64,000 nucleotides of DNA from Shigella phage JK23. The DNA lies in sequence record MK962752. The stretch is one strand, 5' to 3'. The position numbers and the translations under genes were made by a program. Below, piece after piece: positions 11,967 to 15,659 of the stretch. Position 1 is the stretch's first letter; every line of letters begins with the position of its first letter. The notes beneath the pieces were generated by a model. The model was not told the origin of the DNA. It was given only the letters and a program-made list of their open reading frames with translations, and did not search any database.

Positions 11967-11984
11967 AAGGGGCCGAAGCCCCTT
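11967..11984 (-). terminator. hairpin after hoc
   Basis: AGGGGC-CGAA-GCCCCT. Confidence 0.6.
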
Positions 11985-11988
11985 ATGA

Positions 11989-13407
11989 TTATGGATAGGT
12001 ATAGATGATACCAGTTTCTAAAGCAGTTTTATGAATGATGTATCCATTACGCGATTCTTGAACATCAACTTCTGGATAGTCTTTCATCATCTTCTGAAGA
12101 GTGTAACGATGTAGGTAATATTTACTATCTGGGTCGTCAGTTTTCCAATCTTTACCTTCTTCGGTCATTTTTTGGATTTCATCCATAACCCACCAACCGC
12201 ACCAGATATAAGCTGAAGTACGATGTGGAAGAGGATGAACATAAGGTAGTTCACCTTCTGGTTCTGGAGCAACTTTATCAGTTACCTGAACTTGACCTTC
12301 TGCTGTAATAGTTTTGCTATCGTAATCAGTTGCAGTAACGACAGCAGTAACTTCAATAGTTTGACTTCCAACAGATGAGGTATCGACAGTATATACGTTA
12401 GTTGACCCTTCTACAGGAGAAGAATCTTTCTTCCATGAGTAAGTAATTTGTGCTTCTTCTGGAGCACCCGTAACATTAGCCGTAAATGTAGCCGAAGCAT
12501 CTTGCTGAACATTAATAGAAGGAGGAGTCAATGTAACCTGTGGATTCATTGTCTTCTTATTAACTGTCAATGATACTTCATTAGAAGTAACTTCCTTTTC
12601 ATTGTAATTTTCAGCAGTTACTTGAGCTACGCATTTAATTCTTTTTACTCCACTTGTAGTTGGAGTATAGTTAAATGTAGAGTTAGTTTCTCCACCAATT
12701 TGTGAATCATCTACATACCACTGATACGTAGCAGACGCTCCATCAGGTTGAGAAGCTAAGGCAGCAGTAAATTGAACTGGGGTTCCGATTACTCCCGCTG
12801 GAGGACTATCAGGAGTTACTGCCAAAGTAGTTGTCTGCGTCTTTTTATTAACAGTCAGTGACACTTCATTGGAAGTAACTTCCTTTGTATCATAATCTGT
12901 CGCGGTTACTTGAGCTACGCACTTAATTGTTTTAACTCCGCTTGCGTCAGGAGTGTAATTGAATGTAGTGCTAGTTGCTTCGCCCACAGGAGAACCGTCA
13001 ACGTACCATTGATACGTAGCGTTTGCACCTGATGGCTGTGAAGCTAAGGCAGCGGTAAATTCAATTGGAGTTCCAATCACTCCAGCATCAGGGCTACCAG
13101 GAGTTACTGCCAAAGTAGTTGTTTGTGTCTTATTTTGAACTGTGATAGTTGTACTAATTTCAGCTGTTTCAGGTTCAGATTCTGCAACTTGATTGGTTGC
13201 AACTACTTTAATAGTCTTTTGACCGGCAGGTCCTTTTAGTACATAACTAAAAGTTGCTGACGTTTCTTCCTGTGGAGCGTCGTCTACAGTCCAAGCATAT
13301 GTAATAGTTCCGCCTCCAGTTTCACCACTGGGTGTAGCAGTAAACTGCTTAGTTTCATCAATAACCCCTGTCGGTGTTTTAGGAGTTATATCAACTGTAA
13401 AAGTCAT
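11989..13407 (-). CDS. hoc: highly immunogenic outer capsid protein Hoc (4 Ig-like domains)
   Basis: 472-aa ORF of Thr/Val-rich Ig-like repeats with C-terminal capsid-binding region; translationally coupled downstream of inh. Confidence 0.85.
   Translation of the reverse strand: MTFTVDITPKTPTGVIDETKQFTATPSGETGGGTITYAWTVDDAPQEETSATFSYVLKGPAGQKTIKVVATNQVAESEPETAEISTTITVQNKTQTTTLAVTPGSPDAGVIGTPIEFTAALASQPSGANATYQWYVDGSPVGEATSTTFNYTPDASGVKTIKCVAQVTATDYDTKEVTSNEVSLTVNKKTQTTTLAVTPDSPPAGVIGTPVQFTAALASQPDGASATYQWYVDDSQIGGETNSTFNYTPTTSGVKRIKCVAQVTAENYNEKEVTSNEVSLTVNKKTMNPQVTLTPPSINVQQDASATFTANVTGAPEEAQITYSWKKDSSPVEGSTNVYTVDTSSVGSQTIEVTAVVTATDYDSKTITAEGQVQVTDKVAPEPEGELPYVHPLPHRTSAYIWCGWWVMDEIQKMTEEGKDWKTDDPDSKYYLHRYTLQKMMKDYPEVDVQESRNGYIIHKTALETGIIYTYP
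12556..13131 (-). repeat. tandem pair of ~288-bp units encoding two near-identical 96-aa Ig-like domains within hoc
   Basis: Protein residues 93-188 and 189-284 are about 85 percent identical (KTQTTTLAVTP...EVSLTVNK). Confidence 0.8.
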
Positions 13408-13416
13408 AAGTTATCC

Positions 13417-14097
13417 TTATTTTAATGTTACGAAAGAAGAATTACGTGTTTCACGAATTAGAACTGATCCGTCACGATTAATGTAGTAAATTAAGCTAAA
13501 TAAAGTTTGGTGTGCCGACGCATGTTCAAAACTAGTTGGGTGAGATTTCCAATCTGGGGTTTCAGCAATCCATTGATAAATCCACCAAGGAACAGTGCAG
13601 AATCCTGGATTTTTTCCAATCAGCTGAAGATTCGGACTAAAGTTTTCCGGAAGAGTAAATACAGACGGCTTTTCAGATTCAATAATCTCAGCTACAGCCT
13701 GTTCGAATTTTTCTTCAACAAAAGGAGTATCTTCAATTAAAACAGTGGTATTTTCAGGAATTTTATCCGTTTCTACTACTTCAATTTTAATGTCAGATTT
13801 AACCGGAGAATCAATCAAAAGTGCTGCCTCTGGATTGACTTCTTCATCGTCATATTTTAATCCGTCTGCGGCATCAGCAGCATCAATTAAGTCTTTAATA
13901 GATAACCCATCAGTCTCTGGCATAGGTTCACTAGCGAGCTTCTGGAGAGCTTCTTCAATATCATTAACGATATTATCAAAAGATTTATTCTTTTTGACCT
14001 TTATACCAAACTGTTCAGCATATTCAGCTAATTTAGCTTTAGCTTCTTTATTATCATCAAGAGCCTTCAGCTCTGCAATATAATCTTTATCTATCAT
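13417..14097 (-). CDS. inh: inhibitor of prohead protease Inh
   Basis: 226-aa ORF; size and position match T4 inh. Confidence 0.8.
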   Translation of the reverse strand: MIDKDYIAELKALDDNKEAKAKLAEYAEQFGIKVKKNKSFDNIVNDIEEALQKLASEPMPETDGLSIKDLIDAADAADGLKYDDEEVNPEAALLIDSPVKSDIKIEVVETDKIPENTTVLIEDTPFVEEKFEQAVAEIIESEKPSVFTLPENFSPNLQLIGKNPGFCTVPWWIYQWIAETPDWKSHPTSFEHASAHQTLFSLIYYINRDGSVLIRETRNSSFVTLK

Positions 14098-14110
14098 AAT
14101 ATTTCCTCAG

Positions 14111-14118
14111 TATAAATA
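14111..14118 (+). promoter_or_regulatory. late promoter TATAAATA (uvsW)
   Basis: Exact motif 30 bp upstream of uvsW ATG. Confidence 0.6.
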
Positions 14119-14147
14119 TAGATATATTTATTACATGGTATTTAGAC

Positions 14148-15659
14148 ATGACTGACATTAAAGTACATTTTTATGATTTTAGTCACGTGAGAATTGATTG
14201 CGAAGAAAGTACATTTCATGAACTCCGTGATTTCTTTAGCTTTGAAGCTGATGGGTATCGTTTTAATCCGAAGTACAAATATGGCCACTGGGATGGACGA
14301 ATTCGTCTTTTAGATTATAATCGCCTTCTTCCATTCGGTTTAGTCGGGCAAATTAAAAAGTTCTGCGATAACTTTGGCTATAAAGCCTGGATTGACCCAC
14401 AGATTAACGAAAAAGAAGAATTATCAAGAAAAGATTTTGATGAATGGCTTTCTAAATTAGAAATCTATTCAGGAAATAAAAGAATTGAACCGCATTGGTA
14501 TCAAAAAGATGCAGTGTTCGAAGGATTAGTTAATCGTCGTAGAATTCTTAATCTTCCAACATCCGCAGGTAAATCTTTAATTCAAGCTTTGCTTGCTCGG
14601 TATTATTTGGAAAATTATGAAGGCAAAATTCTTATCATTGTTCCAACAACTGCTCTAACAACTCAGATGGCTGATGACTTCGTTGACTATCGTTTATTCA
14701 GTCATGCAATGATAAAGAAAATTGGTGGCGGAGCATCAAAAGATGATAAATATAAAAATGATGCACCAGTCGTTGTTGGTACATGGCAAACTGTAGTAAA
14801 ACAACCGAAAGAATGGTTCTCACAGTTTGGAATGATGATGAATGATGAATGCCATCTTGCTACAGGAAAAAGTATTTCATCTATCATATCAGGTTTAAAT
14901 AACTGCATGTTCAAATTTGGTCTATCTGGTTCATTACGTGATGGCAAAGCCAATATCATGCAGTATGTTGGAATGTTTGGTGAAATATTTAAGCCAGTAA
15001 CGACTTCTAAGTTAATGGAAGATGGACAAGTAACTGAGCTAAAAATTAATAGTATTTTTCTTCGCTATCCCGATGAGTTCACTACTAAATTAAAGGGAAA
15101 AACTTATCAAGAAGAAATAAAAATTATTACGGGGCTTAGTAAAAGAAATAAATGGATCGCTAAATTGGCTATTAAGCTTGCACAAAAAGATGAAAACGCT
15201 TTTGTCATGTTTAAACATGTATCACATGGTAAAGCTATTTTCGATTTAATTAAAAATGAATACGATAAAGTTTATTACGTATCAGGGGAAGTTGATACCG
15301 AAACCCGCAATATAATGAAAACCTTAGCTGAAAATGGTAAAGGAATAATTATAGTAGCTAGTTATGGTGTATTTTCTACTGGTATTTCAGTTAAAAATCT
15401 GCATCACGTTGTTTTAGCACACGGTGTTAAATCTAAAATTATTGTATTGCAAACAATAGGTCGCGTATTACGTAAACATGGTTCTAAAACAATCGCAACA
15501 GTCTGGGACCTCATAGATGACTGTGGTGTCAAGCCAAAATCTGCTAATACTAAAAAGAAATATGTTCACTTGAACTATCTTTTAAAACACGGCATTGATC
15601 GTATTCAGCGCTACGCAGATGAAAAATTTAATTACGTAATGAAAACAGTTAATTTATAA
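14148..15659 (+). CDS. uvsW: UvsW RNA-DNA/DNA-DNA helicase
   Basis: 503-aa ORF with SF2 helicase motifs (PTSAGKS Walker A, DECH box). Confidence 0.92.
   Translation: MTDIKVHFYDFSHVRIDCEESTFHELRDFFSFEADGYRFNPKYKYGHWDGRIRLLDYNRLLPFGLVGQIKKFCDNFGYKAWIDPQINEKEELSRKDFDEWLSKLEIYSGNKRIEPHWYQKDAVFEGLVNRRRILNLPTSAGKSLIQALLARYYLENYEGKILIIVPTTALTTQMADDFVDYRLFSHAMIKKIGGGASKDDKYKNDAPVVVGTWQTVVKQPKEWFSQFGMMMNDECHLATGKSISSIISGLNNCMFKFGLSGSLRDGKANIMQYVGMFGEIFKPVTTSKLMEDGQVTELKINSIFLRYPDEFTTKLKGKTYQEEIKIITGLSKRNKWIAKLAIKLAQKDENAFVMFKHVSHGKAIFDLIKNEYDKVYYVSGEVDTETRNIMKTLAENGKGIIIVASYGVFSTGISVKNLHHVVLAHGVKSKIIVLQTIGRVLRKHGSKTIATVWDLIDDCGVKPKSANTKKKYVHLNYLLKHGIDRIQRYADEKFNYVMKTVNL

Follow-up and report, generated by a model that had tools for sequence, protein, structure and literature searches.

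A two-copy form of a variable Ig-like domain cassette in the Hoc protein of Shigella phage JK23 and its probable recurrent loss in close relatives

The hoc Locus

The stretch of DNA analysed here (the window) comprises 64,000 nucleotides of Shigella phage JK23 (MK962752). Over 25 kb it is 98.6% identical to the Escherichia phages vB_EcoM_G9062 and G4498, which belong to the genus Tequatrovirus. An open reading frame on its minus strand encodes a protein of 472 amino acids, followed by a stop codon, and was identified as hoc, which encodes the non-essential decoration fibre on the head of T4-like phages (Table 1). The reading frame is intact. The prohead protease inhibitor gene inh lies directly upstream, and beyond it uvsW starts at position 14148 on the plus strand. 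Two small open reading frames lie downstream of hoc, followed in relatives by an RNA ligase gene. The order rnlB, two small open reading frames, hoc, inh, uvsW is that of T4. Comparison with the annotated loci of T4, ESCO58, G29, and C2-3 showed that the position of hoc, from rnlB and the small 24.2-24.3-like open reading frames to inh and uvsW, is conserved.

A hairpin resembling an intrinsic terminator follows hoc, and a terminator is annotated at the matching place past hoc in G29 and D5505. No exact copy of the T4 late-promoter core TATAAATA precedes inh or hoc on the minus strand. The match nearest to these genes (14111-14118) is on the plus strand and faces uvsW, 30 nt upstream of its start codon. 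In the whole window this core occurs 19 times, compared with 8.6 expected occurrences, and none of 100 shuffled sequences reached 19.

The intergenic region between inh and uvsW (14098-14147) is 50 bp long in the window and is without a homing endonuclease gene, as is also the case in APTC-EC-2A, G29, and C2-3. T4 and ESCO58 have a gene for a homing endonuclease of 205 amino acids at this place (144-761 in their locus records), which we take to be segE. ESCO58 carries this gene despite hoc flanks that are identical to those of the window. Co-conversion associated with homing could add to the mosaicism of hoc.

Table 1. Features of the hoc locus in the window.
Feature	Coordinates	Strand	Evidence or remarks
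hoc coding sequence	11989..13407	-	Open reading frame list; 99.8% nucleotide identity to hoc of G4498, PYps5T, and UAB_60; T4 Hoc 5vf3_Z, E = 5e-222
inh (prohead protease inhibitor)	13417..14097	-	Open reading frame and annotated counterpart in ESCO58, T4, and C2-3
Terminator-like hairpin AAGGGGCTTCGGCCCCTT, then T-rich tail	11967..11984	-	5 nt past the hoc stop codon
Ig-like domain 1 (residues 1-92)	13132..13407	-	About 40% identical to the repeat unit; beta-sandwich, mean pLDDT around 88-94 in most 10-residue blocks
Repeat unit a, first copy of Ig/PKD-like domain 2 (residues 93-188)	12844..13131	-	Falls in the cluster of first copies from other Hoc proteins with two or three units
Repeat unit b, second copy of Ig/PKD-like domain 2 (residues 189-284)	12556..12843	-	Best Pfam PKD stretch at residues 195-267
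25-nt stretch shared by both units, copy in unit a	13098..13122	-	ACAACTACTTTGGCAGTAACTCCTG; unit nucleotides 10-34; inferred crossover site of ESCO58 and APTC-EC-2A
25-nt stretch ACAACTACTTTGGCAGTAACTCCTG, copy in unit b	12810..12834	-	Unit nucleotides 10-34
NEVSLT motif at the end of unit a (residues 180-185)	12853..12870	-	Translation
NEVSLT motif at the end of unit b (residues 276-281)	12565..12582	-	Translation
Ig-like domain 3 (residues 285-376)	12280..12555	-	Ig_3 and I-set (Pfam) over residues 289-373, each slightly short of its cut-off; identity to the unit about 39%
C-terminal capsid-binding domain, alpha/beta (residues 377-472)	11992..12279	-	Nearly invariant in 27 homologues; aligns to the T4 Hoc capsid structures in the PDB

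Domain Architecture of the Hoc Protein

The only strong sequence match in the Protein Data Bank (PDB), found with phmmer, is T4 Hoc (5vf3_Z, E = 5e-222), with residues 189-472 of the query aligned to residues 93-376 of the chain. The same search showed the C-terminal domain to be homologous to residues 281-376 of T4 Hoc. The length of 376 amino acids given for T4 Hoc in the original prediction agrees with both the T4 locus and the PDB chain. The protein encoded in the window is one domain longer, as had been claimed, and the difference is one unit of 96 amino acids. It is T4 Hoc plus an additional domain-2 unit.

A string of Ig-like domains at the N-terminus is seen with Pfam, AlphaFold, and Foldseek. 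In Pfam, the two repeat units score 45.3 bits for PKD (cut-off 23.5), 31.4 for Ig_2, 27.6 for PKD_3, and 27.1 for PKD_4, all at or above the cut-off. Ig_3 in domain 3, at 29.4, narrowly misses its cut-off of 30. The four N-terminal blocks are related to one another, and domains 1 and 3 each have approximately 40% identity to unit a. The AlphaFold2 model, for which 27 homologues were used, has a mean pLDDT of 85.1. It shows four beta-sandwich domains over residues 1-376, where the 10-residue blocks mostly have values of 88-96. The alpha/beta C-terminal domain is modeled with lower confidence. The best Foldseek matches in the PDB are arrays of four Ig domains (Dscam1 Ig1-4, Sidekick Ig1-4, and ICAM-5 D1-D4; E about 1e-13). 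Their TM-scores are low, as expected where the angles between domains differ. The identification of the gene as hoc with four Ig-like domains, made originally from the sequence, is supported by Pfam, the AlphaFold model, Foldseek, and the PDB match to T4 Hoc.

Residues 382-472 are almost invariant across the 27 homologues, including H395/R396 and W402/W405/W406. With the offset of +96, H395 and R396 correspond to His299 and Arg300 of T4 Hoc, which are named in the literature (PMC10385173).

The Tandem Repeat

Tandem Repeats Finder reports a period of 288 bp with 2.0 copies at 12551-13131. A separate repeat search finds two copies of 288 nt with 77% identity at 12551-12838 and 12839-13126. In the translation, residues 93-188 and 189-284 map exactly to 13131..12556. 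The two consecutive units of 288 bp and 96 amino acids that had been predicted are therefore present at exactly these coordinates. Their predicted identity of approximately 85% was too high. Between the units, 76 of 96 residues (79%) and 222 of 288 nucleotides (77%) are identical. An offset of 288 bp gives the best register; any other in-frame offset gives at most about 40% nucleotide identity.

Copy Number among Related Phages

Among the best 40 GenBank megablast matches (at least 94% identity), hoc spans 1418-1474 bp in 37 and 1131 bp in three, namely ESCO58, APTC-EC-2A, and D5505. We also drew an even sample over the whole ranking of 678 matching records, from a database that is redundant. 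It gave 53 Tequatrovirus-type hoc rows covering the repeat, of which 31 have one copy (T4 and RB51 included), 19 have two copies (approximately 36%), and three have three copies (YUEEL01, A6-6, and slur03, with the copy number shown by tblastn). Hoc protein clusters fall into length classes of 376, 472, and 568 amino acids. With a 568-amino acid member as the tblastn query, full-length three-copy hoc was found in at least 20 GenBank phages.

A four-domain Hoc had been presented as noteworthy. This view did not hold up when Hoc length and domain count were compared across the clade, where the four-domain form is common (37 of the best 40 matches and about 36% of the even sample). Two-copy hoc is the usual form in the closest relatives and is carried by about a third of T4-genus phages; it is ordinary. 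The GenBank record of phage moskry already has a repeat_region feature over the tandem units.

Two database records are worth mentioning. In the 32-kb record of "Staphylococcus phage SAJK-IND" (MG010123.1), labelled as a phage of Staphylococcus aureus, a hoc gene matches that of the window with 93% identity along the full 1419 bp; the record is probably a T4-like fragment, either mislabelled or contaminated. "Escherichia phage T4_ev151" (LR597660.1) is named as a derivative of T4. It has a three-copy hoc of the 568-amino acid class, unlike the one-copy gene of T4, and may have arisen by recombination in an evolution or cocktail experiment.

Age and Types of the Copies

Synonymous and nonsynonymous differences between units a and b were counted by the Nei-Gojobori method (Sd = 38.2, Nd = 27.8). 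The resulting dS is 0.955 and dN is 0.140, with dN/dS = 0.147. The copies are thus far from the near-identity at synonymous sites expected of a recent duplication. The hoc flanks of the window are 88-93% identical to those of T4, and the divergence between units a and b is greater than this divergence between the two phages. Copies within one protein are 74-85% identical in every multi-copy Hoc examined, except for one outlier at 56%; none of these proteins has near-identical copies of domain 2. Units a and b each have orthologues of approximately 97% identity at the same position in other phages.

We clustered 166 units and obtained three main types. One consists mostly of first copies, another mostly of second copies, and the third of most third copies and some second copies. 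Each type is also found as the sole domain 2 of some one-copy (376-amino acid) Hoc. Judged from these sequence comparisons, the copies are old paralogues under purifying selection whose order is conserved; with a dS of about 0.95 they are not a fresh duplication. The 20 residues that differ between a and b comprise 12 of 39 loop positions and 8 of 57 strand positions, a tendency towards loops that is not significant on its own (Fisher p = 0.07). The population entropy of the unit is 0.59 in loops and 0.29 in strands.

Loss of One Cassette in Close Relatives

The flanks of hoc in ESCO58 are identical to those of the window at 276 of 276 and 567 of 567 positions, and those of APTC-EC-2A are 99.6-100% identical. 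Both phages have the 1131-bp gene, and its single unit is a-type at nucleotides 5 and 8 and b-type thereafter. The breakpoint range, nucleotides 9-34, corresponds to the 25-nt stretch shared by the two units. The single unit of C2-3 is a-type at its first 14 informative sites and then b-type, with a breakpoint at nucleotides 78-92, a range that holds a 14-nt identical run. An a-to-b hybrid leaves 15 mismatches in C2-3, and a pure b unit leaves 29. In D5505, the single unit is a-type up to about nucleotides 245-278 and b-type beyond, and the downstream flank is 100% identical. The hybrid calls in ESCO58/APTC-EC-2A and D5505 rest on only two to three informative sites each, and C2-3, with many such sites, is the robust case.

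The hybrid units of ESCO58, C2-3, and D5505 all run from a at the 5' end to b at the 3' end. Their three breakpoints are different, and all fall where the units are identical. The reverse model, from b to a, fits better than a pure unit in none of the three. A 5'-a/3'-b hybrid is the product expected from deletion of one period of an a-b array, which points to contraction. We conclude that unequal homologous recombination removed one cassette on at least three occasions among the close relatives. The expectation that the repeat is a substrate for expansion and contraction is supported: close relatives carry one-copy derivatives whose units are hybrid, and hoc also occurs with three copies. The single unit of T4 is a mosaic, mostly b-type with an a-type patch near the 3' end.

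Origin of the Two-Copy Allele

We consider it probable, at roughly 85%, that the window carries an ordinary two-copy hoc allele, and that domain 2 is an ordered cassette of one to three copies, made up of old paralogues and lost by unequal recombination. Across Tequatrovirus, the cassette is present in one, two, or three ordered copies, corresponding to proteins of 376, 472, and 568 amino acids. Unequal homologous recombination between the in-frame 288-bp units lowers the copy number, as the comparison of relatives shows. In a more detailed form of this reading, to which we give about even odds, domain 2 would consist of up to three ancient cassettes (a, b, and c). These would be repeatedly trimmed by crossover at short conserved stretches and occasionally exchanged, including across genera. 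If this is true, the length of the fibre and the glycan-binding modules that the capsid carries would be a variable trait, rapidly adjustable at the level of the population.

Tandem repeats are a classic source of assembly error, and an assembler might have inflated the repeat count here or collapsed it elsewhere. The two units differ at 66 of 288 nucleotides and are nowhere identical for more than 25 nt, which lets short reads be assigned to one or the other without ambiguity. At least 11 records, which come from different laboratories and hosts, also carry the 1419-bp gene with 98% identity or higher (G4498, G9062, PYps5T, UAB_60, Ptacy1496, LF73P1, and 232Ecol030PP among them), and its reading frame is intact. 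We rejected an assembly error on account of this divergence of the units and the many independent assemblies with the same structure; its probability is close to nil. The picture implicit in the original prediction was a recent duplication of domain 2 in situ, specific to the lineage of this phage. The perfect tandem arrangement of the copies, in frame and of equal length, would be as expected from such an event. Their dS exceeds the divergence of the hoc flanks from T4, however, and both the positional orthologues of each unit in other phages and the ceiling of 85% on the identity of copies speak against it. A recent duplication was rejected on the value of dS and is very improbable.

The two-copy allele could also have been built from a one-copy ancestral state, by unequal recombination between co-infecting phages with diverged single-copy alleles of the a-type and b-type. 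This would fit the presence of a-, b-, c-type, or mosaic units in single-copy genes, the heavy recombination of T4-like phages, and the crossing of a genus boundary by hoc, of which the two-copy gene in the Mosigvirus moskry is an instance. Against it, the order a-b-c is conserved in the multi-copy forms, and ESCO58, C2-3, and D5505 are each a single crossover away from a window-like a-b array. One crossover between D5505 and ESCO58 cannot yield the window allele: at nucleotides 5 and 8, ESCO58 is a-type but unit b of the window is b-type, and the 3' end is b-type in D5505 but a-type in unit a of the window. By eye, the end of the unit and the end of domain 1 share only a few bases of homology, so there would be little to drive a gain. 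We regard assembly from single-copy alleles as unlikely; the array may instead be an ancestral multi-copy one.

Functional Implications

The mature T4 capsid has 155 Hoc fibres of about 180 Å (four domains), one per gp23 hexamer, and Hoc is dispensable for growth (PMC10385173). The Ig-like domains of Hoc have been linked to adherence, both to mucin glycans and to bacterial or mammalian surfaces (PMC10385173; PMC9271167). Domain 2 of PNJ-9 Hoc binds MUC2, for which S183, L184, and T185 within the sequence NEVSLT (N180-T185) are required (PMC11853027). This hexapeptide ends both units of the window protein.

By analogy with T4 Hoc, the extra cassette would most likely make the fibre longer by roughly one Ig domain, or about 45 Å. 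The fibre would then carry two non-identical domain-2 modules, and, as extrapolated from Domain 2 of PNJ-9, the additional one would be a second glycan- or surface-binding module on each of approximately 155 Hoc fibres. Such a change would alter reach, avidity, or glycan range, and the number of domains may tune adhesion, as suggested in the original prediction.

In some relatives, hoc is disrupted. The gene of G29 (MK327940.1) contains a perfect 55-bp tandem duplication inside unit a (1855-1909 of the locus record, at hoc nucleotide 354 or about position 13053 of the window). It shifts the frame and splits hoc into two coding sequences annotated as "PKD domain protein". Either the duplication is real and knocks out a gene that is not essential, or the assembly is wrong here. 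The two-copy hoc of UPWr_E2 (1418 bp), vb_GEC_SH_GT (1420 bp), and FriedrichMiescher (1420 bp) is off by one nucleotide in either direction and is annotated as two coding sequences, named "Hoc part 1" and "Hoc part 2" in FriedrichMiescher. These are frameshifted hoc genes or homopolymer sequencing errors. Disruption of hoc in relatives is consistent with the dispensability of Hoc.

Hoc is the protein behind the model of bacteriophage adherence to mucus and is a widely used display platform, and the practical relevance of the present results is modest. In natural phages of the T4 genus, the number of Ig-like domains is three, four, or five, and what separates close relatives is a clean deletion of one cassette. 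The window phage or G4498, together with ESCO58, C2-3, and D5505, forms a near-isogenic set for relating fibre length and domain-2 valency to mucus adherence.

Comparison with Known Systems

Much of this is already known: the allele is in GenBank many times at 99.8% identity, the repeat is annotated in moskry, and a variable number of Ig domains in Hoc homologues has been published. Our literature search found no paper describing the one-, two-, and three-copy polymorphism of the domain-2 cassette or its recurrent contraction, which are an only mildly new angle.

T4 Hoc, the highly immunogenic outer capsid protein (PDB IDs: 5vf3, 8t1x, and 8t9r), is the product of the same gene at the same locus. 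Its single domain 2 has 89% nucleotide identity to unit b compared with 78% to unit a. The window protein has two copies and is 96 amino acids longer. The 472-amino acid Hoc proteins of vB_EcoM_G4498, G9062, Yersinia phage PYps5T, and Salmonella phage UAB_60 are encoded by genes of 1419 bp with 99.7-99.8% nucleotide identity to that of the window. They are two-copy proteins with essentially no difference from it, annotated as "Hoc-like head decoration" or "PKD domain protein". The three-copy Hoc of 568 amino acids is found in Escherichia phages UGKSEcP1/2, YUEEL01, EC101, and slur03/08/14 and in Shigella phages ESh16/26/34/36. Its array has the same register as that of the window, with an a-type first unit (91% nucleotide identity) and a b-type second unit (88%). 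It differs in an extra, diverged copy that is 77-78% identical in nucleotides to the other two units of its gene, which brings the number of Ig-like domains to five.

Homologues of Hoc consist of a conserved capsid-binding domain and a variable number of Ig-like domains (PMC10385173; PMC11853027). PNJ-9 Hoc has two Ig domains and a C-terminal domain, and Hoc of Serratia phage Muldoon has 10 Ig domains in 1174 amino acids; Enterobacter phage PG7 is a further example. These are distant homologues or cases of domain 3 loss, whereas the window belongs to an in-register polymorphism of cassette copy number within one genus. Tandem repeats of Ig-like or BACON domains are reportedly also present in other phage surface proteins, an example being the BACON repeats of crAssphage. 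The likeness lies in the copy-number variation of adhesion-type beta-sandwich domains on the virion surface; the protein families and the domains are different.

A parallel outside the genus is in moskry (MN850651.1, genus Mosigvirus), which has a two-copy hoc of the Tequatrovirus type at 301-1719, with 84-94% nucleotide identity to the window by segment. RB69 hoc matches the window only over the last 273 nt, which encode the capsid-binding domain, with 96% nucleotide identity. These two matches to the window suggest an exchange of the Ig-domain part between genera, with a recombination boundary at the C-terminal domain.
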